Origin: a virus
Taxonomy: Duplodnaviria > Heunggongvirae > Uroviricota > Caudoviricetes
IMG/VR virus record: IMGVR_UViG_2740892027_000001
Length of the DNA stretch: 39,684 nucleotides
Direction: 5' to 3' (one strand)
Shown one piece after another: positions 6,775 to 26,608 of the stretch. The notes beneath the pieces were generated by a model, which saw only the letters and a list, made by a program, of their open reading frames with translations, searched no databases and had not been told where the DNA came from. How positions within the stretch are numbered: position 1 is the stretch's first letter; the number at the start of each line of letters is the position of its first letter. Made by a program: the position numbers and the translations under genes.

Positions 6775-6786
6775 GTGACATGTCAC
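6775..6786. repeat. 12-bp perfect palindrome GTGACATGTCAC (copy 1 of 3)
   Basis: Identical 12-mer at 24324-24335 and 26589-26600; overlaps the TGA stop of ORF 6783-7079. Confidence 0.7.
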
Positions 6787-7079
6787 GTTCCTTTTCTGAA
6801 TGATAGCCATTCGAAAAATGATGACATTCCACCGCAGACAATAGCAAAGATGATCCCACCAAAGAAGAGAAGGCCAGCCTGCCACCACTCCCACCGCCAT
6901 ACATCCACAGCGCCAACCATACCAACAATCGCTCCAACAAATGGAATATAGCTCACGATGAAAGCAATGGGGGCTGCAATTATCCAGTGCAATCCCCACC
7001 ATGATTCAAGCCCAGCCATAATTGCTGCCAACTGAAAAAGACCAACGACGATATAAACAATGAATCCTATAGCTTGCAT
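6783..7079 (-). CDS. Small integral membrane protein
   Basis: 98 aa, about three hydrophobic helices; between internal virion protein genes and the antirepressor island. Confidence 0.5.
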   Translation of the reverse strand: MQAIGFIVYIVVGLFQLAAIMAGLESWWGLHWIIAAPIAFIVSYIPFVGAIVGMVGAVDVWRWEWWQAGLLFFGGIIFAIVCGGMSSFFEWLSFRKGT

Positions 7080-7274
7080 GTAGTCACCTATTTACCCAGT
7101 AAAAATCAGAGGCCTCCCCTCAATAAGGCTTGCAACAAGAACTACTCCCTGCACAACAAAGATGAACCAGCAAATAGCTTGAGTCTGAGGGTTAAGAAAA
7201 TATTTGTAGCGGTCAATAAATAACAGCCCACCAGAAATTATCACACTCAAAATAATTAAAAACACAACACTTCC

Positions 7275-9749
7275 TTATTGCGGAGTGACATCCTGAGGTC
7301 GCCACCAGTATGTCTGGTTAAACTCTTTCTTCGAACGTTGCTCCATTTTACGCAAATAGCCTGGTGAAAAATACTCCTGCATCTGGTTAAAGATCATGTG
7401 ATCAAGAGCTGCCTTCAAGTACCAGAGATTCGCACCTGGCATCAGCCCTTTCCCAAGTTTCACCAGATCACCACCAGTCTGCTCGTTCTTCCCTTCCACA
7501 GCATTTAATGGTATGCCCTGAGCTATCTTCACTACGTCATCAATCAGGCCAGCTACCGGGCCAAGCATCGACGCCAGCGCGCCGCTTCCGTACCTAGTGT
7601 GATCTGACAATAAAAAGTCACCGTAAAGGCCAAGACCACCACCTTTCAGTAGAGCACCAAGCCAAAATTTAGCAGCATCTTCTCCTGTCATCTCGCGAGG
7701 ATTACGACCAGACGCAAGGTCGTTAAGTTGCTGCGACAAAGCGCCAAGAATGGTCGTACTGGCAATAAACGTCGCAATATATGCCGCACGCCCACCAGCA
7801 GACGGCATACCCATAGCGCGTGACCAGTGACGCATAACCACCGAGATAGGGAACGATTTAAACAGGAAAACACTTCTCGTTAATTCACCTTTCCATGTTC
7901 CACGCTGAATACCAGAACCGGTTATCAGTTGCTCACGTGCTCCCGGTGTAATAACAGCCATATCAACTTCTTCAGTTACGGCACCGAGCAGTTTACGCAT
8001 TGCCTCAAATTTCACGCGTTCAGGCTCACCAAGATGTTTAACTGCTGAATCAGGGATACGCATAATGCTTTCCGGTGTCAGCATCGTATTATTACCGTTC
8101 CCCCAGTCCTCCTGTTGCGCCAGCTTCCATACGCTCCAGTCTGTGTCAGTAATCCCTTTGCTTTTCAGGATACGAAAATCAGAGTCATCGAGGCTACGAA
8201 GGTCTGGTGTCCGTGACACTACTTCTCCCAGGCTTCCCATCATGGTTACGCCATAGGCGCGCTTGTGCGCATCTGACCATGCTGTAAGCCCACTGGCACG
8301 CATTACCGCCGTTGCTGCCCAACGAGACACTGACGGCCCCATATTATCCATCGCCCAGCGGTTAACGCTGCCAAGTAGAGATTCCATTGCCAGACCAGCG
8401 CGGCGCGCCCGCGCAAGTTCTGTACGGTTCGTTGGGTCCATAGCTTCAAGCTGGTTGCGGAATAACTGGTTCATTGGAAGGTTGGTCACCTTCGCAGACA
8501 GATACATGGTTCCAAGATCAGAGAACGATGATAGCAACGCGGATCCGAGTCTGCTGGCAACCAGCCAGTTGCGGATATTGTCAGACCATCGCGCGATGTG
8601 CGGATTCGCTACAGGCTGTGTCTTTCCGGAAATAAAGTTGTACAGATTCTCTGTGTTGTTCGCCAGCCGCTCGACTTTACCGGTTTTACTCGGGTTAGCT
8701 GTTGCCGTTTCTGCCTTAACCTGATCAAGAAGGGAGCGGAAAACATGATCGGGGTTTGGACCATATGTTTCCACCAGAGCAATATCTTTACTGATACCTT
8801 CCAGGTGACCGACCATGATTTCCCATAGAGAGCGATCGCCATAAAGTTGTTGATATTGGAGATAGGAATCAGCATCTTTGAAATGTATCTGTCGTGATGC
8901 ATTACCACGGTTAGCACGTGCGCCGGAAATTCGCATTCCGGTATCAGTAAGCTTATTCAGCCCACCAGTAGCGATCGTGTTATAAGCCTCTCCAAGAAAT
9001 GCAGACAACTCGGCACCGTTCATCAGTTGTCCATCGGCTCGGGTATAATATTTGCGATCCAGCTTACCTATAACATCGTTAACCCACTTATCCTTTGATA
9101 CCGCCCCAACCTTTTCCATAGAATGATGTTGAGGGATCCCCCAGTTTTCGAGATAGCCAATGTCCCCACCAGCATCATTAAACCGGCGGCGCAGCAGCTC
9201 TGTAACTTCTCTCCACGCCTTAGCACCTTTTCTTGCTTTAGCATTGCCAGTATTTTGCCCCCGCATTTCATATACCAGGTCACGTACGCCCGCTTCATCT
9301 TCAAACAGACCAAAAAAGCGAGGATCAACTGCTTCGAATGCCTCCTGCAATTGACTCAATGCATAATCACGGGTGGCTTTTGTTCTGGATTCAACAGAGA
9401 GGAAATTAGATTTACCGTCTGCATTAAAAGCTATAGTACGGTTAAGAGCGCCAAGTTTCCCATCAGCCCCTTGATAGCTATTGATAAATTTATCCAATCT
9501 CTGACGCGCGGCTATAGTGAGAGCCACACGACGTTTCTTTAATGCCGCTTCTCGCTGTAATTCTTCAGATGCCAATTGTGCTGCTCGATATAGCCGCTCT
9601 GATTCGGAAAGTTGTCGCCACGACATCGGGTCATCACGAGCAATGGAGCGCATATTTCGATAAATGCGGTCTTCAATGTTCTGTATTTCTCGCGCCGTTA
9701 ACATGCGCTGCGCCGCCTGCTGAACCGCCTGTATACATTCCTGTCTCAT
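7275..9749 (-). CDS. Internal virion (ejection/core) protein, large
   Basis: 824 aa; position in a T7-like gp14-gp16 block after the tail tube genes; no enzymatic motif confirmed. Confidence 0.55.
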   Translation of the reverse strand: MRQECIQAVQQAAQRMLTAREIQNIEDRIYRNMRSIARDDPMSWRQLSESERLYRAAQLASEELQREAALKKRRVALTIAARQRLDKFINSYQGADGKLGALNRTIAFNADGKSNFLSVESRTKATRDYALSQLQEAFEAVDPRFFGLFEDEAGVRDLVYEMRGQNTGNAKARKGAKAWREVTELLRRRFNDAGGDIGYLENWGIPQHHSMEKVGAVSKDKWVNDVIGKLDRKYYTRADGQLMNGAELSAFLGEAYNTIATGGLNKLTDTGMRISGARANRGNASRQIHFKDADSYLQYQQLYGDRSLWEIMVGHLEGISKDIALVETYGPNPDHVFRSLLDQVKAETATANPSKTGKVERLANNTENLYNFISGKTQPVANPHIARWSDNIRNWLVASRLGSALLSSFSDLGTMYLSAKVTNLPMNQLFRNQLEAMDPTNRTELARARRAGLAMESLLGSVNRWAMDNMGPSVSRWAATAVMRASGLTAWSDAHKRAYGVTMMGSLGEVVSRTPDLRSLDDSDFRILKSKGITDTDWSVWKLAQQEDWGNGNNTMLTPESIMRIPDSAVKHLGEPERVKFEAMRKLLGAVTEEVDMAVITPGAREQLITGSGIQRGTWKGELTRSVFLFKSFPISVVMRHWSRAMGMPSAGGRAAYIATFIASTTILGALSQQLNDLASGRNPREMTGEDAAKFWLGALLKGGGLGLYGDFLLSDHTRYGSGALASMLGPVAGLIDDVVKIAQGIPLNAVEGKNEQTGGDLVKLGKGLMPGANLWYLKAALDHMIFNQMQEYFSPGYLRKMEQRSKKEFNQTYWWRPQDVTPQ

Positions 9750-9754
9750 TTAAT

Positions 9755-11557
9755 TTAACCTCTCAAGAAACACGCCACAGCGACATCAAACAGGCTGGAA
9801 TCCTGTATTGCCTGCTCACTTTCCCTGTTCGCTTCATCCAGTACTTCACGCGCACTGCGCGATTGTGGATTACCATCATCATCCAGCACGGTGATTATCA
9901 TGTCAGGTGATTCAAGCAGCGAGTCTTCAGCTATACGCAGATCAATATCTCCTGCCGGATCTGCCATCATTTTTTGTTCTGTCTGTTGCAATATCTTACC
10001 GGGCTCAAAAGGAGCTACTTCGTCTGGCGTCCTGACCTCTGCTGTTTTATAGAATGAAACAGCCTGAGCATTAAGTTCACTTTCTGCCTGCTGTCGTCGT
10101 GCCAGTTCTGCTCGAGCTTCAAAAAACTGACCGCCAGGCTCATGCGGTGCCAACGCGTTACGGGAAAATTCCAGGCGCTCTTGTGCCTGCCGGATTCGTT
10201 GGTCAATATCGCGAAGTCTGACCTGTTTATCTGATCGAGCACGAGACAAAGCTTTACCGCTACCGGTTGGCTCTTCTGCAAGAATTTGTGCGCGCTGTTC
10301 AGTGAGATTTTCAATAATTCGTTGGCTATTAGCGATTTCAGACTGGTAAACCTGTCTATCGCCACGCGGCAAAAGCTGCGCGGCCTGTTCTTCAAGCAAC
10401 CGATTTTCTATAGCGCGCGCCGTTACTCCATCATCTACAGATGACAGAGCCTCATTAACTGCCTGAGACAGCAGACTCTTGCGCCCAGGAATTTCACTGA
10501 AAGATGCAGACTCAACAATGCTGGCAACGTCTACAGGTCTCCCCTGGCTAACATCAGACATAGCTTTTCGCAGAGCCTGAATGTGAGAATTGCGCGAAAG
10601 CACGTTGATCGGCACGCCGGGCGCAATATCAATTTCAGCATGATGAGCGGCATTCGCCGCCAGTGCAGCATCAACATCAACTGGTGAAAAATTTGGTGCG
10701 CTTGTAGACTCGCCGCGAGAGTTCATAAATCTGCCGACACCACCAAACGCCACCCCAAGAACAGCATCAATAGCAATTGCCTGTCGATCCAACACATCAT
10801 ACTGGTTAGCCATTTCGCTATAGCCACCATCACGAAGCGTTTTTGCAGTAAGCCCACGCTGTGCCATACCGAACGCAATATTTGTACCTGCGGCATAGGC
10901 AATATCTGGCGTTGCACGCACTGCTGTTGCTGCGGCGCGTCGCACTGAACTTTCACCCGTCCGCGCAAGCTGGGCCGCCACACCTTCCGCCAGCGCACCA
11001 CCAGCACGTAACCCGAGGCTCATAGGGATCAGTGTTCCGGCACCAGCAGTAATACCCTGCACTAATCCCGCTTCCTGCGCCGTCCTGAAATCAACACCCT
11101 GTGCTGTCAGCCGTTCAAACTCAGAAAAACCCTGTAGAGAAGTTACCGCCGCAGCACCTCCGACCGGACCACCGAGCGTTGTACCGACAACAGCCTGCCC
11201 TCCCATATCGAACAACCCATAAAGGACCTGCCCGGCGGTTCCGGTTGTCGCGGCATCAGGCGTCAGCCGCTTAACCTGCTGCTCTGCTAGTTTTCTCTGC
11301 TCAGCAATGTATGAAACTGAAGTGTCATTAAGCGAGGTGTTTTCGTTAACAAACTGAGCAATCGGGGATACGATTTTATCCATCCCTGCCCATAGCAACT
11401 GATCTGGCTTTGCCACCAGCCCGGAGTACAAACCAGACAATGCCGCTCCTACAGCATTGTCGAAAAAACCAACATTGCTGTTAAAGCCAGCTGGATTTGA
11501 TGCTGCTTCGTCAAGCTGCTGATTCTGGCTTACTGGATTAAGGCCAAAGTAACTCAT
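9755..11557 (-). CDS. Internal virion (ejection/core) protein
   Basis: 600 aa, Ala/Gly-rich with coiled-coil C-terminus; co-oriented in internal-protein block. Confidence 0.5.
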   Translation of the reverse strand: MSYFGLNPVSQNQQLDEAASNPAGFNSNVGFFDNAVGAALSGLYSGLVAKPDQLLWAGMDKIVSPIAQFVNENTSLNDTSVSYIAEQRKLAEQQVKRLTPDAATTGTAGQVLYGLFDMGGQAVVGTTLGGPVGGAAAVTSLQGFSEFERLTAQGVDFRTAQEAGLVQGITAGAGTLIPMSLGLRAGGALAEGVAAQLARTGESSVRRAAATAVRATPDIAYAAGTNIAFGMAQRGLTAKTLRDGGYSEMANQYDVLDRQAIAIDAVLGVAFGGVGRFMNSRGESTSAPNFSPVDVDAALAANAAHHAEIDIAPGVPINVLSRNSHIQALRKAMSDVSQGRPVDVASIVESASFSEIPGRKSLLSQAVNEALSSVDDGVTARAIENRLLEEQAAQLLPRGDRQVYQSEIANSQRIIENLTEQRAQILAEEPTGSGKALSRARSDKQVRLRDIDQRIRQAQERLEFSRNALAPHEPGGQFFEARAELARRQQAESELNAQAVSFYKTAEVRTPDEVAPFEPGKILQQTEQKMMADPAGDIDLRIAEDSLLESPDMIITVLDDDGNPQSRSAREVLDEANRESEQAIQDSSLFDVAVACFLRG

Positions 11558-14067
11558 TGCGGAATATCTCCGGAGAATCTCTGACGTTTCTGTGTCAGAT
11601 TAAGAACAACGGGAGAACCATCATCTTTCAGCAGATAACCAGTACCAAGTTTCACCAGGTACTGACTATCGCCGTAACTTTGCAAACCATACTGACCAGG
11701 CGGTGTTTTTATCCCGGAGCCGACAACTTGTTCATTCCAAGCCTGATTAACCTGCTTATCGAATTGCTCTGCAGACATTCCCCACGGCAAAAGGACATTC
11801 CCCATTCCGTTATAGTCATGCACGCCACCTGTAGCTACGTTAACAGCCTGTTTCCAGACATCATTGTCAATTTCGCCTGATACCACGCCTTTTTTCGCCA
11901 TCACACCAGCGTAATAGTCCTTTGCGATCTCGTATGCCATTGATGCCCCCTGAGCATCACCAGCAAATGCATCCTTCACCATGTCAGAAAACTCAAGGCG
12001 AAGATCAGCATCTTTAGGCATCGGAATACCTTTCGCATCATCAGTACCTTTACGAGCCGCCGCGCCAGCAAGAATTGTCTGCGCAGCGGTTTCAGGAGAC
12101 ACGGAAACATCCGGATTAAACCAGTTTTTTTCTGCCAAAATACCACCAGGCTTGTCCATCAGTATCCCGGCAACGGCAGCAGATGGAGCGTTGGCACTGA
12201 TCTGCTGTAGTGCTGACATATACACCTGCCCACCACCAGTGCTCTGCCTGATGGTATCGAGATATGCTGCCTGTTGGGAAACTGGAGCATCACGAAAGAA
12301 AACACCGATCTGATTGGCCTCGTCTTTGGAAAAGAACGTCAGTGGAGTGCCATATGACTTAGCAAGGTCACTGACCTGAGCAGCACGCAAGGCAACGCTC
12401 TGTCCAAAGTTATCCTTATTGCTCATGTCGATAGGCTTTGCCTGTCCGGCGGCAAGAGAGAACTGTACAGGATCAGCCTGTCTCTGCTTTATCACCTGAC
12501 TTGCAGCAGACACAACGTTGTCATAAAGAGCGGCTCGTGCCGCATAACCCTCCCCTGTCTCACCAGTATCCGGGCGTAATTGCTCAACATATGCTGTAAT
12601 GCTGCTTGTCGGCATGTTGCGGAAAGAGCCTATATACTGTCCGGCGATTTGCGTATTTCTGAACTCGGTATATCGCAGGTTTCCTTCTCTGACTCCATAA
12701 GCTGCAATAAAATCAGCCTCACCAGGTGGGTTAGGAAATTCAACGCCACGCATATACGCAGCTGTCGCATCGCGAACTTGGCTGTCAATCATCGTTTTAT
12801 ATTCAGCCTGCTGCTGCCGACGCAGTTGATCCGCCTGTCGCATAAAACTTGCCTGCGCCTCAGGAGATGCCGCATCGAATGCTGCATTACCGGTATAGCG
12901 TTTGGTGTTGGTTGGAATTGTTGATAAACCAAGTGCTGCACTGACACCAGCAGTTAACTGCTGATCACTGTATGGCTGGCTACCGTTCTCATGATGGATA
13001 ATGGCTGCACAAAGCGCCTTCAGGGTATCAGGATTAGATGCATCGAGAGGCTCATCAGCAGAAACGCCAAGTTGTTCGCACACTGCTTTGATATACGACA
13101 TAGTGTCATTTTTATCAGTAGGCGGTGCCCAGCGATTAATTATCTCGCTGACGGTATCAATACCCTGTCTCTGATACGACATCAGGTTCCGCCCTAATGC
13201 ACGAATCCCGTGTTCAGGTGTTTCGAATTTAGCAAATCGACCATCATCACCGGTCTGGCCTACCCACGGATTGGTTTTGCTGTATTCGAGATTTCCTGGG
13301 TTATTGTTGCGTATGCCACGGGCACGCTCGGAAGAATCACTATCTGCTACAGCACGGCGAGCTCCAGCAGCAGTATCACTTAACTCGCCATTACTTTGGA
13401 TGAATGCGGTCGCATTGTTTGCCGACCACTGGGACAATGCTGCATCAGCAACCTTCTCTTTAAACTCGATTTTCTTGGCCTGGATTTGCTCGTCGCTCCA
13501 GCCATGCGCAATGCCGTAATCCTCAATTTGCTGGAAAGTTTGCTTATTAGCCAATACGTATGCGGCGTTGTCGCCATACAATGCTGCGGCATTTTTACCA
13601 TTGTTCAGCAGCGTAGCCTGAAACTGGCCTTCTTCGTAGGCATTTATTTGCCCTATCTCGTGCCGCCCGGCCTGCGTAGTGAACTGAATGCGCTGCTGCT
13701 GCGCCTGCTGCATGAAAGCATTACGAGCCTGTTCATCCGGCAGCGACATAGCCAGTTGCTCGACCTTGGCATCAAACTGCTGCGTATACTCCTGACCTTT
13801 TCCAATAGCATTTTTCCCTTTCAGGTTAAGCAAACCTGTTTCAGGGTTATTCAGCAGATCGCTGCTTATCTGGCTTAAGCTAAGAGAAGCATCCTGAGCC
13901 ATAGCAACATTCGCACGCTGTTTTGCCTGCGCAATAATACCTGCATATTGCTCTGCAACATCGCCAAGTACATCACCGACATTTGGTGTCTGAAACGATG
14001 AGAATCCCTGCGTCGAAATCCCTCTGCTCTGAACCTGACGGCCCGATGTTGTTGGTACAACTGGCAT
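11554..14067 (-). CDS. Internal virion (ejection/core) protein with conserved central domain
   Basis: 837 aa; central block RGIRNNNPGNLEYSK...FETPEHGIRALGRNLMSYQ looks like a conserved globular domain; overlaps neighbours by 4 nt. Confidence 0.55.
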   Translation of the reverse strand: MPVVPTTSGRQVQSRGISTQGFSSFQTPNVGDVLGDVAEQYAGIIAQAKQRANVAMAQDASLSLSQISSDLLNNPETGLLNLKGKNAIGKGQEYTQQFDAKVEQLAMSLPDEQARNAFMQQAQQQRIQFTTQAGRHEIGQINAYEEGQFQATLLNNGKNAAALYGDNAAYVLANKQTFQQIEDYGIAHGWSDEQIQAKKIEFKEKVADAALSQWSANNATAFIQSNGELSDTAAGARRAVADSDSSERARGIRNNNPGNLEYSKTNPWVGQTGDDGRFAKFETPEHGIRALGRNLMSYQRQGIDTVSEIINRWAPPTDKNDTMSYIKAVCEQLGVSADEPLDASNPDTLKALCAAIIHHENGSQPYSDQQLTAGVSAALGLSTIPTNTKRYTGNAAFDAASPEAQASFMRQADQLRRQQQAEYKTMIDSQVRDATAAYMRGVEFPNPPGEADFIAAYGVREGNLRYTEFRNTQIAGQYIGSFRNMPTSSITAYVEQLRPDTGETGEGYAARAALYDNVVSAASQVIKQRQADPVQFSLAAGQAKPIDMSNKDNFGQSVALRAAQVSDLAKSYGTPLTFFSKDEANQIGVFFRDAPVSQQAAYLDTIRQSTGGGQVYMSALQQISANAPSAAVAGILMDKPGGILAEKNWFNPDVSVSPETAAQTILAGAAARKGTDDAKGIPMPKDADLRLEFSDMVKDAFAGDAQGASMAYEIAKDYYAGVMAKKGVVSGEIDNDVWKQAVNVATGGVHDYNGMGNVLLPWGMSAEQFDKQVNQAWNEQVVGSGIKTPPGQYGLQSYGDSQYLVKLGTGYLLKDDGSPVVLNLTQKRQRFSGDIPQ

Positions 14068-14079
14068 CTTATTATCCCC

Positions 14080-14619
14080 TTATCGACCGGTTGGAGTGCC
14101 AACAGCAGCAGAAATCGGCGCAGCCTTCTGAGAGAATGGGCTCCACGTTCCTCCGCCCATCTGGTATGCACCGTATGCTTTTAGTGGTGCCGTTAACAAA
14201 GTGCTGGTCATCGATGATTTAGCAGCCGACTGAGCAGCAGCCCCCTGTGCCTGAGCATTCATTCCCTGAACCTGATACCCATATGCCTCACGCTGAGCAT
14301 TATTCACTGTCGTTAACGCATCAAGAGTGCCGAACTGAGCATTATCCGCAAAAACGTCAAGAGCTGTTCCGCTACTTAATTCCGCACCGGTAGCCCCCAT
14401 AGTGGCCGCCGCAGTGCCTGAGCGTTGACGCATTTCACGACGACGCTGATCCGCTTCAATATTCCCACGATTGATTGAATCCTGTGCCTGAGCTTCAGCA
14501 ATTTCAGCATTCCGATCAGCTATGGCTGACTGGTATTTTGCCTGCTTGCTCTGGCTGTACATTGACGCGGCTGTGGATGCCACTGTGACGGCAACCAAAG
14601 CGATGGCTGGGTTACACAT
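14080..14619 (-). CDS. Internal virion protein (gp14-like position), N-terminal hydrophobic segment
   Basis: 179 aa, Ala/Gln-rich, N-terminal hydrophobic helix; position. Confidence 0.45.
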   Translation of the reverse strand: MCNPAIALVAVTVASTAASMYSQSKQAKYQSAIADRNAEIAEAQAQDSINRGNIEADQRRREMRQRSGTAAATMGATGAELSSGTALDVFADNAQFGTLDALTTVNNAQREAYGYQVQGMNAQAQGAAAQSAAKSSMTSTLLTAPLKAYGAYQMGGGTWSPFSQKAAPISAAVGTPTGR

Positions 14620-18488: not shown

Positions 18489-18497
18489 TCCTGCAAT

Positions 18498-18520
18498 AAA
18501 GGGGCCGAAGCCCCTTGTCT
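18498..18520 (-). terminator. Putative partial intrinsic terminator within structural operon
   Basis: Minus-strand hairpin AAGGGGC-ttcg-GCCCCTT followed by TATTG, between ORF 18533-18877 and ORF 18159-18488. Confidence 0.35.
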
Positions 18521-18532
18521 GATCCGCGAGGC

Positions 18533-18877
18533 TTACACGCCCAGTTCTTTACGCTTATCTGCGATCTTCTCGCGGAGCGTTTCGGCTTTGGCGTTATGGT
18601 GTGGCTTCTCGTTAAAGAGCAATTCGTACTCTTCACGGAGCTTATCCAGTTCACCATCATCTGACACATCGTTGATGATTTTGGTGCTGGTTGCTGCCAT
18701 TGACACCTTTCCTGCAACTTTTGCTTTTGCCTGTCTGGCTGCATCGTTCACAGGTTCCAGTGCGCTACCAGGCTCACCTTCGTATTCGATTTCTGCCCCC
18801 TCCGGCCACAGAGTGTTATGGATATGAGAGAGGCGCAGAACGCGGTATCTTGGTTTCTCACCTGACATCGATATCAC
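18533..18877 (-). CDS. Hypothetical structural-module protein
   Basis: 114 aa, charged and helical; in capsid gene block. Confidence 0.45.
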   Translation of the reverse strand: MISMSGEKPRYRVLRLSHIHNTLWPEGAEIEYEGEPGSALEPVNDAARQAKAKVAGKVSMAATSTKIINDVSDDGELDKLREEYELLFNEKPHHNAKAETLREKIADKRKELGV

Positions 18878-18878
18878 C

Positions 18879-19316
18879 TTAACCAGTTACTTTTGAGCGG
18901 ATCGGGTACGGCGTATTGGCATCAACATCCAGACTGATACCCGCAGTGAATTTGCCGGCCGTTAGTGGGCCAGTTGCGACGGAGTAGTTAACACGCAGAT
19001 ATCGCTGAACACCGGCAGGCACCTTTGCAGAAACAACTCGTTTACCTGCTGCCAGGGAGGTCTTTGCCAGTGCGCCACTATCATAAATAGTGGTCCATGA
19101 GCTGTTATTCTCACTCGTCTGCAACTGGATGTTTACAGTTGCCTCACCACTTGCCGTGGCGGCTTCGTTAACCAGCACCCAAAACTCAAGCGGGTAACCC
19201 ACACCGATATCGCGACGGTTTCCATCAATTGGACCGAGATCGATTACGTCAGTAGAAGCCGCGGTATTCGTAACCGCCTGAGCTTCGGAGAACATCAACA
19301 GTTTGTCGGTGATCAT
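18879..19316 (-). CDS. Virion protein (possible capsid decoration/accessory)
   Basis: 145 aa, directly downstream of major capsid gene; beta-rich composition. Confidence 0.4.
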   Translation of the reverse strand: MITDKLLMFSEAQAVTNTAASTDVIDLGPIDGNRRDIGVGYPLEFWVLVNEAATASGEATVNIQLQTSENNSSWTTIYDSGALAKTSLAAGKRVVSAKVPAGVQRYLRVNYSVATGPLTAGKFTAGISLDVDANTPYPIRSKVTG

Positions 19317-19367
19317 CTTCTTTCTCCATTAGTGGGTCTGTTACGACCCACAGGTTAATAACAGGCG

Positions 19368-20360
19368 TTACACCACGCGGGCTTCTGTTTCCAGAAGCGC
19401 ATCAGTTTCACGGATTGGTACACCACGGAATGAAGTCCACCACTCGCCTTCTGTCTCTTTTACGCTGATCGCCAGAGATGTTTTCTCCAGAGATTGCAGA
19501 TCAAGAGCCTGGCCTACAGTGCGGTTCATGTAGAACACCGGGCGACCCATGCCACGATTTGGAATGCGATGCAGTGCTTTAACCATCAACTTCGCAATAT
19601 TTGCGGCAGAGGAAGGTTCTGAAAGATTGCTGACATCGATGTTTGCAATGCGAACAACATAACGCCAGTCACGCAGAGCAAGTCCGTTGTCCCATTTGTA
19701 ATGGGTACGGTAGCCTTCGTACTTGCCGCCATTCGCATCTTCCAGTGTCACCTGGCCTTTATCTTCCATCTGGATGCCAGCCTTCTGCCCTTTCGGGAAG
19801 ATGCCATGCACGGTGTTTTCGCCCCACACCACTAACCAGATTGAGGTGTTATCTGTACCCGTGCCACCAGCATCAATGATGTTCTGAGCATTACCCGCAG
19901 ACAGGCTGGAATAGCGGGAGGACAGTCCCATAAACTGCTGAGGGTTAACGCTGGAATCACCATAAAACAGTGTCTGCGCCATCTGCTGATTCATCGCTTC
20001 AATAAATGCGCGGTCTTCAGACAGGCGGAATTCGGCGGTATTACCGTTCAGATCAGCCAGTGACTTATCGACTTCAGCATAGGTTTCCAGCATGCCAACG
20101 TAATCGGTTACCTGCACTGTGGTTGATTTGCTTGGCTGTACGCCATAGTTCAGCAAACGCCAGGTAGCTGAAGGTAAACCAGAACGAATGGTGGTTCGGT
20201 GTCCGGTAGGAAGGTTCCCTTCGACAAAAGGCATATCCTGAAGGATCGGGTTAGTTTGACCGAGAAGCTCGATAATCTTATCGACTTTCCCGTTTGGATC
20301 GACGCGCTTACCCCAGTCAGCCAGCGTTAGCGCAGTTAAGCCTTTAACAGCCATTGTCAT
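19368..20360 (-). CDS. Major capsid protein
   Basis: 330 aa; between scaffold-like gene and tail tube genes; size typical of T7/epsilon15-type coat proteins. Confidence 0.7.
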   Translation of the reverse strand: MTMAVKGLTALTLADWGKRVDPNGKVDKIIELLGQTNPILQDMPFVEGNLPTGHRTTIRSGLPSATWRLLNYGVQPSKSTTVQVTDYVGMLETYAEVDKSLADLNGNTAEFRLSEDRAFIEAMNQQMAQTLFYGDSSVNPQQFMGLSSRYSSLSAGNAQNIIDAGGTGTDNTSIWLVVWGENTVHGIFPKGQKAGIQMEDKGQVTLEDANGGKYEGYRTHYKWDNGLALRDWRYVVRIANIDVSNLSEPSSAANIAKLMVKALHRIPNRGMGRPVFYMNRTVGQALDLQSLEKTSLAISVKETEGEWWTSFRGVPIRETDALLETEARVV

Positions 20361-20368
20361 TTCCTCTC

Positions 20369-21070
20369 TTATTTGCCATAGAGCACTTCGGCCGCACTAC
20401 GCTGGCCTTCATTACCACCGGTGACCATGCCATCTTCAGACATCGCCTTTCCGATTTTCACGAACGTTTTGACCAGATCAGGGTGATTACCCAGCCCGGT
20501 GGTGTTCAGATATTCTTTGAGTTCAGGTGTCCCGAACTGGTCAAGCGCACGCTGTGCGGCGCTAAGGTTAGAAATCAACTTGTCGCCACCGATTTCTTTG
20601 TCAGCTTTTACATCCGCAGTCCACTGCTCGGTTGTTTTCTGCCAGGCTTCTGCCTGGCGCTGCTGAACACCTGCCAGAATCTTCGGATAAGCATCAACCA
20701 GCTTTTGCGCTTGCTCGTTGGTCAGGTTAAGTTCTCGCGCCACCGGCTCGAATTCCTTCAACGCTTCTGTATCCAGTTCTACGCCTTCGGCAGCCTGAAA
20801 CTCGTACTTCTCAGGCGCACCCTCTGGTTTATCGCCGTCCTTTTTTTCATCCTGCTTATCGTTTTCAGGCTTTTTGTCATCAGCAGGTTTATCGCCATCA
20901 GCAACAGGTTGTGGCTTATCACCTTCCTGTTGTGATGGATCACCAACTGGAGCAGGGTTATCACCTGCAGGCGCTGACGGTTCTGACGCAGCCGGAGCTG
21001 CTCCACCATCGACTGGTTGCTCATTGCAAAGACGGCGATACAGCAAACGCTCAAATAAACTCATGATCAC
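20369..21070 (-). CDS. Scaffolding protein (putative)
   Basis: 233 aa, acidic Pro/Asp/Lys-rich N-region and helical C-region; immediately upstream of capsid gene. Confidence 0.5.
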   Translation of the reverse strand: MIMSLFERLLYRRLCNEQPVDGGAAPAASEPSAPAGDNPAPVGDPSQQEGDKPQPVADGDKPADDKKPENDKQDEKKDGDKPEGAPEKYEFQAAEGVELDTEALKEFEPVARELNLTNEQAQKLVDAYPKILAGVQQRQAEAWQKTTEQWTADVKADKEIGGDKLISNLSAAQRALDQFGTPELKEYLNTTGLGNHPDLVKTFVKIGKAMSEDGMVTGGNEGQRSAAEVLYGK

Positions 21071-21363
21071 TCCTGTTCACTGGCCTCTTTGGCCATCTTC
21101 AAATACTGTTCAGGGCAATGCGCCATAACGCGCTGAAACAGTTCCAGCGCCAGATTGCGTTGCCCCTCATTAAATGCCATTGCCATAGCGTCCATCGGTG
21201 AGATAGCGGAAAACACACGGCCTTTCTCCAGCACCGACCAGACAACGCGACGCCCCTGTTCGCTGCTCATGACAAAGCGAATGTCATCAATTTCACGCTG
21301 CGCCATGTCACGTTGCTTACGGGCGTTTTCTTCTTTCAGTTGATCGTCTTCGTAATCTGTCAT
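21067..21363 (-). CDS. Hypothetical protein between portal and scaffold
   Basis: 98 aa, 4-nt overlaps with both neighbours. Confidence 0.5.
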   Translation of the reverse strand: MTDYEDDQLKEENARKQRDMAQREIDDIRFVMSSEQGRRVVWSVLEKGRVFSAISPMDAMAMAFNEGQRNLALELFQRVMAHCPEQYLKMAKEASEQE

Positions 21364-23039
21364 TGTGATTGCCCACCCTGACCACTAACTGCATTCGCCA
21401 TAGCTGACAAAACACTCGGATCCGAAGTTTTAGCTTCGCTTAGCGTCTTGGCACCCTGTGCCGCCGCCATCCCCATCGCCATCATTTGTTGCTGCTGTTG
21501 CTGCTGTGCCCGTTGCTGGCGAGCATGCTCAACCTGTTCCTGCGGAACAATGACGGTTGGAGACACTCCGGACATATCAGCGAATGCATCGATCGCCTGA
21601 TCAACGTTGAGTTTGTCGAGAGCTTCTGGTTTCGCTTGCGCAAGTTGACCAATGAAGTTAACCGTGGACGCCAGACTGGACAGGCCGATAGACTTCTGCG
21701 CCTGAGCCATGACGGAAATGTATTCGACCTTCAGGGGCATGCCTTCCATCGCGTCAGGCGGTGGCGGCAGCATGTTTTTACGCACCATCATAGAGAAAGC
21801 GCGGTCAATGAGAGGATTAAGACATTCGTCGTTCAGACGCTCCAGAACCGGCCCCAACATCAGAAGTTTTTCTTCTTTCATTTCGATCACCGCTTCAACA
21901 GGCATCGAGCGGGTATTGATGTTCTGCAACATCATGAACAGATCGACAAAGTAGGCGCTGTTAATGATTTGGCGAGTGTCCTGAATGTCTGCCACCAGAT
22001 CTGCTGTACTGGGGTTAACCAGATAAGCAGGCCTGAAACCATCCTGACCAGTAATCTGATCGATATACGTGATGTCGCCAGGAAGAAGGGAGGCGCGCTG
22101 ATTCTTGAGGGAAGTCGGAGCAACCATCGGCGGATTGGTGGCTTTATCAATCAACTGCGACTTGCGCTTCTGGAGAAGCTGCAATGCCTTAACAGGTCCA
22201 AGCGCCAGCATACCCGGGCATGATGATCCATAAACATCTTCGCCGTTAACTTCCCAGCGCGGAGCCATAATTGGAAACTCATCGAATCCGGACTCACGCA
22301 ACAACTTGTCGTTATCGCCGCCAACCTCGTAATAAACCGATTTGAATGGCTTGTTCTTGCTATCCAGCTTCGATGTATCGCGGTCAATGTTCGGGTAAAC
22401 CGAATGCATCACTTCGATCCACTTCTCGTAGGTGCCGCTTTCCCACATGCTTTTTACGGATTCGCTGACGTTATTTAGCCCGAACTCCTGAACAAGCTGA
22501 CGAACAGTCATAGAGAACTTGCGAAAACAGGTGTCAACACTGCCACGAGGTGAGTTAGCCAGGTAGTAACTGCCTATCGGGAATGGCATTGTGCGAATGA
22601 TGTCCTCGTCATCCTCCAGCACTGCCATTGCACCAGTGCTGTATGTGCCGAGGCTTCCGTATAACTGCGGAAGAGACTGGTAGAGATTCGACTTATTGAA
22701 CATATCGTTCATGCGGTTCTGCACCGCCTCAAGCCACAACTTAACAGGGCCATAATCCATCATTTCAGGATCTGGCGTAGCCAGGCGAAACCACGGACGC
22801 GCGGGGCTTGTGATGCCTGACATCATGCCGCTGGCGAGAGTGCGCGCCGCCATAGTCCCGGTCGAATCAATAATGCGTGTATTGCGTCGATCGTTACGGT
22901 TGACCTCTGAAGTCAGAAAGCGGGAACCACGCGGGTTGATGTAATCACTCAACTCGCGCCAGTGCGGCTCGAACGACTGACGCTCGCTTTCAAGTTGTGC
23001 GAACTGTTTGTTCAATCGCTCTTTAGTTGTTTCCGCCAT
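21360..23039 (-). CDS. Portal (head-to-tail connector) protein
   Basis: 559 aa; first large gene after terminase in morphogenesis operon. Confidence 0.7.
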   Translation of the reverse strand: MAETTKERLNKQFAQLESERQSFEPHWRELSDYINPRGSRFLTSEVNRNDRRNTRIIDSTGTMAARTLASGMMSGITSPARPWFRLATPDPEMMDYGPVKLWLEAVQNRMNDMFNKSNLYQSLPQLYGSLGTYSTGAMAVLEDDEDIIRTMPFPIGSYYLANSPRGSVDTCFRKFSMTVRQLVQEFGLNNVSESVKSMWESGTYEKWIEVMHSVYPNIDRDTSKLDSKNKPFKSVYYEVGGDNDKLLRESGFDEFPIMAPRWEVNGEDVYGSSCPGMLALGPVKALQLLQKRKSQLIDKATNPPMVAPTSLKNQRASLLPGDITYIDQITGQDGFRPAYLVNPSTADLVADIQDTRQIINSAYFVDLFMMLQNINTRSMPVEAVIEMKEEKLLMLGPVLERLNDECLNPLIDRAFSMMVRKNMLPPPPDAMEGMPLKVEYISVMAQAQKSIGLSSLASTVNFIGQLAQAKPEALDKLNVDQAIDAFADMSGVSPTVIVPQEQVEHARQQRAQQQQQQQMMAMGMAAAQGAKTLSEAKTSDPSVLSAMANAVSGQGGQSQ

Positions 23040-23053
23040 TTCAATGACTCCGG

Positions 23054-23260
23054 TTACTGACCAAGCAGCGTTTTACCGCTGGTATTAGCGGTTGATGTGT
23101 CGCCCTGAGAACCAGTAAGCAGCGTAGAACTACGACCAGCAGCAGCGCGACGGCGACGTGTTTCTTCGTCGCGGGCATCAACAACGGCGGCATCCTGCTC
23201 CTGTGGTGCTGCCTGAACTTCTGGTGTTGCAGGCACTGATGGTGAGCTACCCATGCACAT
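23054..23260 (-). CDS. Small hypothetical protein upstream of portal
   Basis: 68 aa, GGAG about 10 nt upstream of ATG; a competing overlapping frame (23041-23280) looks less protein-like. Confidence 0.3.
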   Translation of the reverse strand: MCMGSSPSVPATPEVQAAPQEQDAAVVDARDEETRRRRAAAGRSSTLLTGSQGDTSTANTSGKTLLGQ

Positions 23261-23350
23261 ATCAATGACTCCGTACGCAATTAAATTATTACCAATTTAA
23301 CCACATATGATTTATTTATCGTAGGTAGTTGACATTTAACGCACGAATTA

Positions 23351-23365
23351 TTACCTTTAAGGTAA
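23351..23365. promoter_or_regulatory. Operator-like palindrome TTACC-tttaa-GGTAA
   Basis: Perfect inverted repeat in 400-bp non-coding region between portal gene and tRNA; TTGACA at 23330-23335 nearby. Confidence 0.5.
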
Positions 23366-23687
23366 CCAAAGAGCTCATTCCGGTTACTAACCTGACTGGC
23401 TTGTCGTTAAATTGAACAGGTGGAGTGAGCTTTTATTTTGAGCAGTACGGCGTATGGCACATGCGACGATAGCGGTCTGGATACGTTTAAGGGGCACCCT
23501 CCCTTGCTCGGGCAAACGAACCAGGTAGCCGGAATGTGCAAGTCGAGCGGTTTTATTCCGCGCACGGGGATACACCATCCCGGCGATTCGGTGTGACGCC
23601 TCGGAAGAGACGAGGGTACAACGATGAGAGCATTTATGGAGCCGCGACAAAGTGTGGCGCCTTAACAGGCTAAGTGCTCTCAGCGTT

Positions 23688-23764
23688 GTGGCATTAGCTC
23701 AGTCGGACAGAGCAACCGCCTTCTAAGCGGTTGGTCGCAGGTTCGAATCCTGCATGCCACGCCA
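23688..23764 (+). tRNA. tRNA-Arg (anticodon UCU), phage-encoded
   Basis: 77 nt cloverleaf folded by hand: 7-bp acceptor stem GTGGCAT/ATGCCAC, D-arm GCTC/GAGC, anticodon stem ACCGC/GCGGT with loop CUUCUAA, T-arm GCAGG-TTCGAAT-CCTGC, 3' GCCA. Confidence 0.85.
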
Positions 23765-23807
23765 GAATCACGCCTAAGGACCGTGATGCCAGAAGTTCCA
23801 GGTGCTT

Positions 23808-23850
23808 GGCGGTGATGGTTTCCCTTGAAGGACTATCACCGCCCTTTTTA
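23808..23850 (+). terminator. Intrinsic terminator downstream of tRNA
   Basis: GGCGGTGAT...ATCACCGCC stem followed by CTTTTTA. Confidence 0.5.
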
Positions 23851-23927
23851 CAGCAGGACGCCATTGCGATGACTTCATGCTGTAAACCCGTACAGCCACG
23901 GAAGGCATAACTCATTGCTTCCAGTTC

Positions 23928-23951
23928 GCCCGGTTCGCCGGGCATTTTTTT
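23928..23951 (+). terminator. Terminator-like hairpin (GCCCGG-ttcg-CCGGGC + ATTTTTTT) just upstream of ORF 23963
   Basis: Perfect 6-bp GC stem plus T-run; ends 12 nt before ATG and overlaps the AAGGTGAG Shine-Dalgarno. Confidence 0.45.
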
Positions 23952-23962
23952 AAGGTGAGATT

Positions 23963-24319
23963 ATGAACGACCAGCAAATCGAAAAAGAAATCGTTGAGAA
24001 AGGCAAAACCGCTCCGCGAGTTACGCCTCAATATATCGAAAGCATCATTCTTGAAGAGCATTTCTTTACTGCTTATGACGGCATTCGTGCTGCCAATATG
24101 GGCGTTGGCGATTCATGGACAGCGCATAAATCTACAGACCTCCTGACTTTCTGCGTACTGGTGCTGAAGAATGGCTTCACCGTCACCGGAGAAAGCGCCT
24201 GTGCAAGCACGGAAAACTTTGATGCAGAAATTGGTCGGAAGATTGCCCGGCAGAATGCTGTAAACAAAATCTGGATGCTCGAAGGTTACTTGCTGAAGCA
24301 GAAGCTAAGCGAGCAATAA
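23963..24319 (+). CDS. Hypothetical protein (accessory gene in tRNA island)
   Basis: 118 aa, strong Shine-Dalgarno; plus-strand gene inside minus-strand late operon; family not recognised with certainty. Confidence 0.6.
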   Translation: MNDQQIEKEIVEKGKTAPRVTPQYIESIILEEHFFTAYDGIRAANMGVGDSWTAHKSTDLLTFCVLVLKNGFTVTGESACASTENFDAEIGRKIARQNAVNKIWMLEGYLLKQKLSEQ

Positions 24320-24323
24320 CACC

Positions 24324-24335
24324 GTGACATGTCAC
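24324..24335. repeat. 12-bp perfect palindrome GTGACATGTCAC (copy 2 of 3)
   Basis: Five nt after the stop of ORF 23963-24319 and immediately before terminator 24340-24366. Confidence 0.7.
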
Positions 24336-24339
24336 AAAC

Positions 24340-24366
24340 AGCCAGCCTATGAGCTGGCTTTGTTTT
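24340..24366 (+). terminator. Intrinsic terminator (AGCCAGC-ctatga-GCTGGCT + TTGTTTT)
   Basis: Hairpin plus T-run after the accessory ORF. Confidence 0.6.
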
Positions 24367-24409
24367 ATCCTCACCAGAGGATATCAACGACATTATCCCC
24401 ACCAGCGGA

Positions 24410-25885
24410 TTAAGCATAAGGGTCATAATCCGTTATGGCCCTTCCCTGCTGGCTTTGCTGTCCTGGTATATTTATGCGTTTCGAGACCGGGAAAGCAAAC
24501 GTCAGCAATAGCGCATCGCCTTTCCCCGGCGAACGCCCAAGTCGCTCCTTGATATCTTCCTTCGGTTCGATAACGATTTTACCGTCCACGCGAACTTTGT
24601 ACTCTGCCGTCGACAGGTCGTCCGCTGTTTCCTGGTCATCCAGCATGCCGCCGAGCCTCAGCCATGTCTTGCATGAGTTGAACATCTCCCCACGCTTGTT
24701 GAGCATCTGCGGGTCAGTAGACGCGCCACCGAACGGAACAAGTTGCCATGTACGACCCCAGCCGTCACCGATTGACTTCAGACCAGTTCCGTAACCGAAG
24801 TCGATGAACACTGCGTCAGCCTGGTACTGGTCTTCAAAGTCAGCGATACGCTTCGCCATAATCAGATCGTCAGTGGTCTTGTTGCCGGTCCACAGCACCT
24901 TACTATGCAGCCCCTGCCGCAGGTATATCACAGCATCATCAACACCGGAGTATGCCGGGTCAACGCCGATTATCACCGGAGCATGTGCCACCTGCGCAGC
25001 GGTTATCACCCGTTTCATTGCCTCGTCAGTAAGTCCGGTAGGGATAAACTGCAATTCAGATGCATCAGGGAATATGCCGCGCACACGGATTTTAACGAAG
25101 TCACTGTCTTCCCCGTAGTCATCAACCCATTTCTGCAACTGCTGTTTGTTGGTGCCTTCCACCGTCCGGCTGTCAATCTGCGCAGTTTTCCAGCGGTGTT
25201 TATACTTGCGGAAACATTCACGGAATCGCCCGGTATTACGCGTCGGGTTTCCGAACGCCACCCAAATAATCTCAGTGTCTTCGTCCGTAAGCGCACCCTC
25301 GGCAACTTCCCACACCAGATCCGCAATGTTCGACGCTTCATCGAATACCACGATAATGCGTTTGCGCTCGTTGTGTAGTCCTGCGAATGCCTCAGTGTTG
25401 TGCTCAGACCAGGGGATTGCGTCAGCTCGCCACCGCTTGTCGTGTCCAGGATCATTGCTGTACATCGCGGTAGCGGTGCAGGTGAACCAGTCTTTCGTGA
25501 TAGCAAGGTTCGACCACTTGATAATTTCAGGCCAGGTCTTCGTTCGTAGTTGGTTGTCGGTGTTGGCGGTCACCACGACCTTACAATCCTCGCAAGTGGA
25601 CATGCCCCAGTTGATCAGCATTGAGATGAATGCGGATTTACCAATACCGTGACCAGAAGCACGTGCCAGCATAAGCGGCTGATATCGCGTCTCTGGATTC
25701 TGCAGGTGATCACGTATCTCTCGGAACGCATCGGCCTGCCACTGACGTGGACCGGTGGCATGTGCCAGTTCAGTACCCTCTTCCCCCCACGGGAACGCAT
25801 AGAGGGCATAGCCAAGCGGATCGTGAGTGAACCCTGCAATATCCTCGATTAACTGCTCTTCAGGAGATAACGCTGTATCTGTCAC
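24410..25885 (-). CDS. Terminase large subunit
   Basis: 491 aa; P-loop-like SGHGIGKS near the N-terminus, acidic nuclease-domain residues C-terminal; 4-nt overlap with small-subunit gene. Confidence 0.85.
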   Translation of the reverse strand: MTDTALSPEEQLIEDIAGFTHDPLGYALYAFPWGEEGTELAHATGPRQWQADAFREIRDHLQNPETRYQPLMLARASGHGIGKSAFISMLINWGMSTCEDCKVVVTANTDNQLRTKTWPEIIKWSNLAITKDWFTCTATAMYSNDPGHDKRWRADAIPWSEHNTEAFAGLHNERKRIIVVFDEASNIADLVWEVAEGALTDEDTEIIWVAFGNPTRNTGRFRECFRKYKHRWKTAQIDSRTVEGTNKQQLQKWVDDYGEDSDFVKIRVRGIFPDASELQFIPTGLTDEAMKRVITAAQVAHAPVIIGVDPAYSGVDDAVIYLRQGLHSKVLWTGNKTTDDLIMAKRIADFEDQYQADAVFIDFGYGTGLKSIGDGWGRTWQLVPFGGASTDPQMLNKRGEMFNSCKTWLRLGGMLDDQETADDLSTAEYKVRVDGKIVIEPKEDIKERLGRSPGKGDALLLTFAFPVSKRINIPGQQSQQGRAITDYDPYA

Positions 25886-26478
25886 TGATTGCCATCCTGA
25901 CGTTCTTTCAGTCTCTTCCTGGCTGCCGCTATGCGATCAGCAATTGTCACATTCACATTAACATCCAGGCGTTCTTTGAATGCGTTGACGTCGACGTGCT
26001 TACCAATCAGTTCGAGGTTCTTCACCTTGTCAGGCCATTTAATTTTTTTGAGGATTGTCTCTATCGAATCCTCGTTCATGTTCATGATGGTCGATGACAG
26101 ATCAAAGCCGCTAAGCGTAGTGCGCCAGATTTTCGGCCACTCTCGGATTGGCTTAAGGCTCCCATCGTCGTTGAGGATGTCGATCACGTCCATCTGGTCG
26201 ATCTCCACCAGACGCATGAGAACGTAATCAGCACTGACGCGCATTCGTTTGTTGCGCTCCTCCATCAGCTCGGCAATCCGTTTTTGAATGCGTTCATCGC
26301 GCATCATGACACTGGCTTTAACTGCTGCTGTATTTGGGGAGAATCCTGCGTTAATCGCTGCCTGAGTCTGGTTTTCAGGCGTTTTGATGTATGACTGGCA
26401 ATAAGCCTCCTGCATTGCTGTTAGTGGCTTAAATTGCGTTGATTTGCGTTTATAGGTTTTAGGTTCAGCAGGCATCAT
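25882..26478 (-). CDS. Terminase small subunit
   Basis: About 198 aa from ATG 26478 (GGTGG Shine-Dalgarno); the track ORF extends to a TTG at 26556, but that extension contains an intrinsic terminator, so the shorter start is preferred. Confidence 0.65.
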   Translation of the reverse strand: MMPAEPKTYKRKSTQFKPLTAMQEAYCQSYIKTPENQTQAAINAGFSPNTAAVKASVMMRDERIQKRIAELMEERNKRMRVSADYVLMRLVEIDQMDVIDILNDDGSLKPIREWPKIWRTTLSGFDLSSTIMNMNEDSIETILKKIKWPDKVKNLELIGKHVDVNAFKERLDVNVNVTIADRIAAARKRLKERQDGNQ

Positions 26479-26520
26479 AACCACCGTGGTAATAGTTACC
26501 GTTGTGGTAATAGTACCATG

Positions 26521-26547
26521 CAAAATAAAGCCGCCATAGTTGGCGGC
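26521..26547 (-). terminator. Intrinsic terminator upstream of terminase genes (GCCGCCA-acta-TGGCGGC + TTTATTTTG)
   Basis: Strong minus-strand hairpin plus T-run between the early-right genes and terminase small subunit start. Confidence 0.55.
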
Positions 26548-26579
26548 AGTATTCAAAACACATCAAATTCATCATGCAT

Positions 26580-26608
26580 AATCTACTCGTGACATGTCAC
26601 ACTATTAA
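26580..26608 (-). promoter_or_regulatory. Candidate late promoter (TTAATA-N17-TAGATT) with palindrome in spacer
   Basis: Weak sigma70-like hexamers at 17-bp spacing, read on the minus strand; the GTGACATGTCAC palindrome fills the spacer; terminator lies 30-60 nt downstream. Confidence 0.3.
26589..26600. repeat. 12-bp perfect palindrome GTGACATGTCAC (copy 3 of 3)
   Basis: Overlaps the TGA stop of ORF 26597-26938, about 40 nt upstream (minus-strand sense) of terminator 26521-26547. Confidence 0.7.

Follow-up and report, generated by a model that had tools for sequence, protein, structure and literature searches.

Introduction

Dimers of ribbon-helix-helix (RHH) proteins are classic readers of short palindromes, and the classical repressors of this kind include Arc and Mnt of P22, CopG, MetJ, the TacA and ParD antitoxins and the ParG/omega proteins. 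In Escherichia coli, MatP, the organizer of the Ter macrodomain and itself an RHH protein, binds the 13-bp site matS, GTGACRNYGTCAC (PMC6907758, Table 2; PMC3603311), a sequence that was not found in 500 enterobacterial prophages (Bobay et al., PMC3603311). Here we describe a phage-borne site that shares its arms with matS, the perfect 12-bp palindrome GTGACATGTCAC, and the phage-encoded 112-amino-acid (aa) protein that most probably binds it. The palindrome was noticed in virus record IMGVR_UViG_2740892027_000001, a DNA of 39,684 nt (this whole stretch is called the window), which is a complete temperate podophage of the epsilon15/phiV10 type, genus Uetakevirus, in reverse orientation, with its late genes on the minus strand.

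Compared with the classical RHH repressors, the system has the same beta-alpha-alpha fold, here a predicted one, and a short palindrome of a size for one or two dimers, with paired sites 23–33 bp apart in some lineages; however, the sites are found at or after the stop codon of the candidate regulator and at other operon ends, not at its own promoter, the 112-aa family carries an extra zinc domain, and no Pfam RHH model reaches threshold for it. Compared with MatP and matS, the 5-bp arms GTGAC...GTCAC are identical, the predicted RHH core is likewise preceded by a basic helix, several dispersed sites are present per replicon and the hosts belong largely to the same orders. In contrast to MatP and matS, the spacer is of 2 bp instead of 3 (1 bp in one phage lineage), the phage protein has a Cys4 zinc knuckle and a short helix in place of a four-helix bundle or coiled-coil tail, and the system is borne by phages, with a site fused to the stop codon of the gene.

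Results

The palindrome lies at three unit ends in the window

The exact 12-mer was found three times in the window and nowhere else in it, at 26589–26600 (copy A), 24324–24335 (copy B) and 6775–6786 (copy C), with no strand assigned. The chance expectation in the window was about 0.002 copies for a palindromic 12-mer and about 0.04 for GTGACNNGTCAC, and GTGACATGTCAC was not recovered in any of 100 dinucleotide-preserving shuffles (0/100), which bears out the claim of an earlier note, made from the letters alone, that three identical palindromes are present beyond chance. Allowing two mismatches in GTGACATGTCAC added a single match, at chance level.

The same note had placed the copies at stop codons and beside hairpin-plus-T-run terminators, and both placements were confirmed, the distances over the three copies being 0–4 nt to a stop codon and 0–42 nt to an intrinsic terminator. 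Copy A overlaps the TGA stop of the gene for the 112-aa protein (26597–26935, minus strand), a member of the epsilon15 gp49/phiV10 p55/N15 gp46 family (PHROG 536), and lies upstream of a terminator, of repressor-type operators and of terS; this terminator (26530–26547, minus strand; 7-bp stem with six GC pairs, followed by a T-run) separates the gp49-family gene from terS and is located 41–42 nt downstream of copy A in the late direction. Copy C includes the TGA that ends the structural operon's final gene (6783–7079, minus strand; PHROG 3075, E 1.6e-54), abuts the intrinsic terminator of that late operon (6757–6774, minus strand), which follows directly 3' of it, and faces a converging plus-strand accessory island with Bro-N/Ant genes. 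In both cases the stop is formed by motif positions 2–4 read on the minus strand (ORFs, open reading frames, 26597–26938 and 6783–7079). Copy B lies 4 nt past the stop of a plus-strand accessory gene of the N4 gp49/Sf6 gp66 family (23963–24319; PF13876, E 5.8e-34), referred to below as gp66-like, and 4 nt from a bidirectional terminator hairpin (24340–24359, plus strand, T-runs on both strands) that is situated between terL on the minus strand and the gp66-like gene on the plus strand and ends the terS-terL operon. The gene tables agree with the earlier statement that copies B and C stand at the edges of accessory islands.

Read in phage orientation, copy A is at the end of the early-right operon, where it overlaps the stop codon of the final early gene (p55 of phiV10, gp49 of epsilon15), copy B is between the terL terminator and the converging gp66-like gene, and copy C is at the end of the structural operon of about 17 kb. 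The motif sits outside the stems of these three terminator hairpins. As RNA, the 12-mer folds at −1.2 kcal/mol (z −0.03), the same as shuffled sequences; this negligible hairpin favours a double-stranded DNA site, and an RNA-level element was rejected on the same energy.

The sites are conserved amid diverged flanks in Uetakevirus

The earlier note had staked its reading on the presence of the 12-mer at equivalent positions in related phages, and the sites are indeed kept across Uetakevirus relatives. The palindrome occurs at the same three places in phiV10, epsilon15, SPN1S and Tyrion, copy A of phiV10 crossing the record junction and having 1 mismatch. In Kp4865-1, copies A and B are present together with two other copies, and position C, where one was expected, yielded none. 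The Kp4865-1 positions 24674 and 36317 hold an exact palindrome and a GTGACCCGTCAC copy, apparently within structural coding regions.

In alignments of the three regions, the 12-mer stands as an invariant island amid diverged flanks. In region A the spacer between palindrome and terminator varies in length and sequence, the terminator at 26530–26547 being kept in epsilon15, SPN1S and Tyrion; in region B the stem sequence of the terminator differs between the E. coli and Salmonella phages with its pairing kept; and in region C the palindrome and the hairpin are conserved next to upstream genes that cannot be aligned. Among 80 phiV10-like IMG/VR loci, 79 have the site at the stop of the gp49-family gene with 0–1 mismatch, and site B follows 2.2–2.5 kb downstream in about 58. 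In Tyrion, site B is found 4 nt after the gp66-like gene and another accessory gene separates it from terL, which indicates that copy B belongs to the end of the accessory gene and not to terL.

Two side observations concern these phages. A degenerate copy lies within the small gene that follows the portal gene, at 21300–21311 of the window (GCGCCATGTCAC) and at 5306–5317 of phiV10 (GTGACATGGCAC); its one-mismatch form is present in 40 of the 80 phiV10-like loci, and the same variant partners the exact site in P2-like phages. In Kp4865-1 (12697–12790) and some relatives of the Klebsiella type, copy A is followed within 5 bp by a TTGACT −35 element and a LexA box (TACTGT-N8-ACAGTA), a promoter that drives a umuD'-like gene (its product starts MGFPSPAADY) inserted between the gp49-family gene and terS.

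The palindrome and the 112-aa protein gene occur together

To trace the pair further, the 112-aa protein was used as a tblastn query, and homologues were obtained in 146 phage records, including N15, phiKO2, P2-like Yersinia phages, Vibrio siphophages and Aeromonas phages. Searches with the family alignment yielded near-identical relatives only, and each lineage was queried separately. A generalized motif, GTGAC-N2-GTCAC, with a chance expectation of about 1 site per megabase, was present in 13 of the 14 lineages of phages and phage-plasmids that have a homologue, down to 27–36% protein identity, and it often covers the homologue's TGA stop, in a register shared across lineages. At that distance (27–36% identity) it was present in every representative: the Serratia and Salmonella phage-plasmids, an element of the Pseudomonas fluorescens group, a Pseudoalteromonas-like element, Salinivibrio and three metagenomic contigs; the overlap with the TGA stop recurs in the Pseudomonas and Pseudoalteromonas-like elements.

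In N15 we found three copies of cGTGAC(TG/CA)GTCACg, at 28550, 33237 and 39269, for none of which the N15 record has a feature. Of the three, one covers the TGA stop of the gp46 homologue, in the register seen in the window, another lies about 620 nt into repA, and another downstream of gene 33. These GTGACTGGTCAC sites resemble the N15 SopB centromeres IR1–4 in being dispersed palindromes of the same N15 region, and are separate from them and different in sequence, IR1–4 being GTGCGACCnnGGTCGCAC (PMC7205306), so that the centromeres were rejected as an identification. All 49 N15-like IMG/VR loci have the site at the stop or 21 nt past it (46 with the stop overlap in the same register), and in most of them a second and a third copy lie 4–10 kb upstream; the centres vary (TG, GG, CC, CA) and the arms are constant. 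The Vibrio siphophage K303 carries three 12-bp copies and one 13-bp copy, and its relatives carry two to three. The 13-bp copy of K303 (19491–19503, GTGACACCGTCAC) fits the matS consensus exactly and includes the TGA stop of the upstream gene; K303 also has a small gene that is ParA-like.

In P2-like phages the exact site is located 0.5–4.6 kb downstream of the homologue in 50 of 55 loci, usually with a one-mismatch partner 33 bp away, and variable cargo lies between homologue and site; more distant homologues recovered in the P2-like search have the exact palindrome 0–15 nt past the stop. As a control, 80 P2-like loci were fetched via their portal protein. The motif was present in all 28 loci that bear the gene (30 sites in 553 kb) and in none of the 52 loci that do not (0 sites in 905 kb). 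Since they are phylogenetically related, the 80 loci are not 80 independent trials; the control spans at least three sublineages, which differ in centres and distances. The homologue and the site pair bracket, between gene A and the portal gene, a cargo slot of 0.5–4.6 kb; in vB_YenM_42.18 (8028–11720) the cargo is an 872-aa protein with PHP and AAA/SMC-like ATPase parts, which has the look of defence cargo.

One lineage has the arms around a 1-bp centre, in two sites, TGTGACAGTCACA and TGTGACTGTCACA, at 9090 and 9121, 31 bp apart. The protein of this lineage lacks one residue in the segment that joins the basic helix to the beta-strand, which is 30 residues long in 49 of 57 sequences. Covariation of linker and spacer is possible, from this single case, and a member with a 7-residue insertion keeps 2-bp centres.

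The 112-aa protein has a predicted RHH core and a zinc knuckle

The family is a small one: in a set of 1.84 billion representatives it forms 150 clusters at 50% identity (E <= 1e-3). In annotations its members are named only 'hypothetical' or 'transcriptional regulator', and no Pfam model was found for the family when the window protein and 57 members were scanned. In the alignment, a basic N-terminal helix is conserved (R-K-x-x-Q-R-x-R, R8 being invariant), followed by a hydrophobic strand, by two helices whose P-Y...E-Y...L-I signature is kept and by a Cys-x-x-Cys...Cys...Cys knuckle; the C-terminus consists of a Cys4 zinc knuckle (C79, C82, C91/93, C99) and a 9-residue helix. An AlphaFold monomer model built on a diverse family alignment (predicted local distance difference test score, pLDDT, 91.4) has an RHH core and the Cys4 zinc knuckle, the predicted strand, helix and helix spanning about 45 residues as in RHH proteins. 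Sub-threshold hits to RHH_5 (2 of 57 members) and RHH_1 (1) and a weak match to the CopG-like YbfE model NF008671 (E 0.07) are in line with this fold, RepB-RCR_reg gave sub-threshold hits in 2 members, and a sequence search of the PDB with the family profile gave chance hits only. A palindrome with a free 2-bp centre is compatible with reading by a dimer of the modelled fold, and, as RHH dimers read short palindromes, the product of the 112-aa gene is the obvious predicted binder.

Similarity to MatP was not detected. True MatP proteins carry both PF06303 (N-terminal) and PF17414 (C-terminal), neither of which gave a hit in the 57 family members, and hhalign of the family alignment against E. 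coli MatP returned a probability of 0.6%; sequence homology to MatP was rejected on these two results. A search for MatP homologues returned proteins of 97–100% identity apart from one at 69%, and thus no useful MatP profile. The 13-bp matS was absent from the window and from five other Uetakevirus genomes, in which all sites have the 2-bp centre.

A partition centromere of the ParB-parS or ParG type was also considered, and no ParA was found in the window (ORF list, and the annotation of phiV10 and epsilon15). Many carriers of the family are phage-plasmid-like contigs of 43–49 kb with a small ParA of the CbiA/MipZ type; in several of them a small ORF downstream of ParA resembles the partner of ParA itself, and the gp49-family gene never adjoins ParA.

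Sites outside Uetakevirus are found in several contexts

Genomes of the family carry 2–4 dispersed sites, some as pairs 23–33 bp apart. Of all positional features, the best kept is a site that overlaps the gene's own stop codon or lies no more than about 15 nt from it. Coding sequence makes up about 90% of these genomes. A manual tally of their gene tables placed about 27 of 35 sites between genes, and this share of about three quarters suggests a regulatory role or at least one compatible with transcription. Sites that adjoin terminators or lie at converging junctions are Uetakevirus B and C and the Serratia pair. Terminator adjacency is a feature of Uetakevirus and not of the motif, and the suggestion in the earlier note of a terminator-associated element is not supported as a general property: outside the genus, terminators were near 14 of 35 sites vs 24% of random positions, several of the 14 being the palindrome itself scored as a hairpin. 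The motif was likewise rejected as a component of intrinsic terminators, given its place outside the stems and the restriction of the adjacency to Uetakevirus.

A second palindrome family marks unit starts

A second palindrome, TTACC-N5-GGTAA, was matched 14 times in the window with at most 1 mismatch, vs 0.5 expected, at positions that include 4565, 4946, 5992, 23351, 26478/26496, 30208/30270, 32571/32619, 33331/33393 and 39520. These are the sites annotated 'repressor; lysogeny' in the epsilon15 record, and they are found upstream of terS, of the structural operon and of accessory-island genes, as well as in the immunity region. Their position upstream of late and accessory units suggests that those units are directly controlled by the repressor. 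In the window, TTACC-N5-GGTAA marks the starts (5' ends) of units, while GTGACATGTCAC marks three ends.

Discussion

The gene-motif co-occurrence in 13 of 14 lineages and the presence/absence pattern of the P2-like loci make the zinc-finger protein, proposed as partner in the earlier note (as a 113-aa protein), by far the best candidate; that the palindrome is of the protein-binding type, and no product of chance, is likewise supported. We consider it highly probable that the three palindromes are docking sites of the 112-aa protein. A dimer would bind GTGAC-N2-GTCAC, reading the arms and leaving the central two bases free, and gene and site would form an old, co-inherited module, in many lineages with one site in or just after the stop of the gene and one to three elsewhere.

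What the bound sites do is a separate question, for which we favour, tentatively, a boundary. In the phage of the window the sites mark the 3' ends of three units, the early-right operon (A), the terminase operon at its junction with the gp66-like gene (B) and the structural operon at its junction with the accessory island (C), and bound dimers would serve as roadblocks, reinforcing the terminators beside them and shielding converging units from one another. A dimer at copy A might in addition exert operon-internal negative feedback on its own gene and lessen early read-through into terS. LacI reportedly autoregulates in such a manner, as a roadblock at O3, at the 3' end of lacI. There, too, the operator lies over the 3' end of the regulator's own gene and feedback is possible without touching the promoter; the likeness is a pure analogy, and the protein families differ. 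A boundary or roadblock function, taken by itself, is possible and rather doubtful. The explanation as a whole, in which cognate sites of a 112-aa RHH protein serve as a boundary with feedback, may be correct, and we hold it as a working explanation short of a firm one.

Several observations weigh against it. The arms are constant even at 27% protein identity, with no covariation of protein and site, and such invariance could on sequence alone point to a shared host factor that recognizes GTGAC arms; the arms are, moreover, identical to those of matS, the site of the host protein MatP. The Aeromonas phage 85AhydR10PP has a homologue and no exact site, with a degenerate aTGACATGgCAC over the stop. 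Site contexts are heterogeneous: in N15, the Pseudoalteromonas-like element and K303 there are sites directly upstream of a ribosome-binding site inside an operon, in K303 and Salinivibrio a site lies 19–23 nt upstream of the terS start codon, and others are inside genes (N15 repA, a structural gene of Kp4865-1, a parA-like gene of Salinivibrio). Together with the weak terminator association outside Uetakevirus, given above, this heterogeneity means that a general DNA-organizing role fits as well as a roadblock.

Such a role could be bridging in the manner of MatP. The protein would link dispersed sites via its zinc knuckle or C-terminal helix, and would thereby loop or condense phage or prophage DNA, or disturb MatP/MukBEF, with no control of transcription. 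The identity of the arms to those of GTGACRNYGTCAC, the two to four dispersed sites per genome, some of them inside genes or in pairs 23–33 bp apart, and the fact that most hosts belong to orders that bear MatP all speak for it. However, there is no sequence similarity to MatP by hhalign or Pfam, the spacer is of 2 bp and not 3, the coiled-coil tail is lacking, and one lineage comes from the Pseudomonas fluorescens group, which is not known to carry MatP; the strong intergenic bias and the linkage to stop codons, in addition, look regulatory. On balance we regard bridging as unlikely. A further point in favour of bridging comes from proteomics of an N15-like Klebsiella telomere phage, whose lysogens yielded no more than nine phage proteins; a protein with the annotation 'gp46', whose tie to the 112-aa family is unconfirmed, is among them (PMC12042878). 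If this protein is the homologue of N15 gp46, the family is expressed in the prophage state.

A late-gene switch would assign the protein a different task, that of a Q-like antiterminator or late activator loading at copy A, with B and C as places where the modified polymerase is handled. The gene sits in what would be the 'Q slot': in Uetakevirus, in K303 and Salinivibrio and in the Pseudomonas, Serratia and Salmonella elements it closes the early genes, with terS or the lysis genes coming next. A DNA site followed by a terminator downstream of copy A recalls the lambdoid Q/QBE-tR' arrangement, where the gene is likewise just upstream of the late and packaging genes. The earlier note had put copy A in the spacer of a candidate late promoter. 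At copy A, GTGACA-18-CATGAT matches a promoter at 9 of 12 positions, with GTGACA agreeing at 5 of 6 with the −35 hexamer; however, 5 promoter-like matches were counted in the region vs 3.6 expected from shuffles, and the spacer and −10 element differ in epsilon15, SPN1S, Tyrion and Kp4865-1, so that the late-promoter claim is weak, and a sigma-70 promoter at the sites was rejected because the matches are at chance level. In K303 and Salinivibrio the site and the terS start codon are 19–23 nt apart, too close for a promoter to fit between them. Unlike Q, the 112-aa protein has no Pfam or NCBIfam Q-family hit and its site no conserved promoter around it; the family coexists in N15 with gp40, annotated as 'late transcription activator', and in the P2-like carrier vB_YenM_42.18 with a separate small 'transcriptional regulator' (35653–35868) that, by its position, is probably Ogr-like; and neither copy B nor copy C precedes late genes. 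We therefore think a late switch improbable.

A host protein, MatP or another reader of GTGAC arms, might bind the sites with the phage gene merely travelling along. The invariance of the arms across very divergent homologues, their identity to matS and the exact matS fit of the 13-bp K303 copy agree with this; nevertheless, it leaves the perfect presence/absence pattern of gene and motif and the stop-codon linkage unexplained, true matS is absent from the window as well as from the 500 enterobacterial prophages (PMC3603311), the 12-bp spacing differs, and the motif is found in a Pseudomonas element, all of which makes a host binder very improbable. True matS or a site of host MatP was rejected as an identification because the motif is of 12 and not 13 bp, depends on the phage gene and occurs in the Pseudomonas-group element.

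Hardly any weight can be given to a recombination or module-boundary sequence for the exchange of accessory genes (morons, defence cargo), for which the location of B and C at island edges is circumstantial evidence, along with the gene and site pair that brackets the variable cargo of P2-like phages, including the PHP-ATPase gene, and the movement of copy B with the gp66-like gene, since no recombinase is linked to the motif, 12 bp are too short for homologous exchange, many sites are away from cargo edges (N15 repA, upstream of terS) and the predicted fold is that of a DNA-binding regulator and not of an enzyme.

Given the lack of similarity to MatP, of bundle and coiled coil and of true matS, and the occurrence in Pseudomonas, we have not filed the system under MatP/matS. 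A speculative idea, to which we attach little probability, is a portable 'mini-MatP/matS' of gamma-proteobacterial temperate phages and phage-plasmids, made of a minimal RHH protein and matS sites one bp shorter, with which a phage might fold its own DNA or insulate it, or might escape or make use of the host Ter machinery (MatP, MukBEF, divisome anchoring), orthogonally to the 13-bp sites that prophages avoid; shared ancestry with the MatP core would be possible.

Returning to the 112-aa protein and its putative cognate sites, RHH proteins that pair with palindromic sites are a familiar kind of system; what is new is the fusion to a zinc knuckle, a site that merges with the stop codon, an arm specificity that stays the same over many phage types and the resemblance to matS. 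In the literature searched, neither the 12-mer nor its N15 and Vibrio variants was mentioned in a relevant context. A specific DNA partner, one that can be tested, is now named for a family that has no Pfam model and carries generic annotations only, and that spans temperate phages of the podo-, sipho- and myovirus types and N15-like phage-plasmids of Escherichia, Salmonella, Klebsiella, Yersinia, Serratia, Vibrio, Pseudomonas and marine bacteria. A regulator site fused to a stop codon, together with an arm specificity that would be constant down to 27% identity, is unusual among RHH proteins. In these phages the borders of operons and of cargo are sharply marked by the motif, which also flags three previously unannotated sites in N15, one of them within repA; the near-identity of the motif to matS raises the question of whether phages copy, avoid or interfere with the chromosome organization of their hosts.

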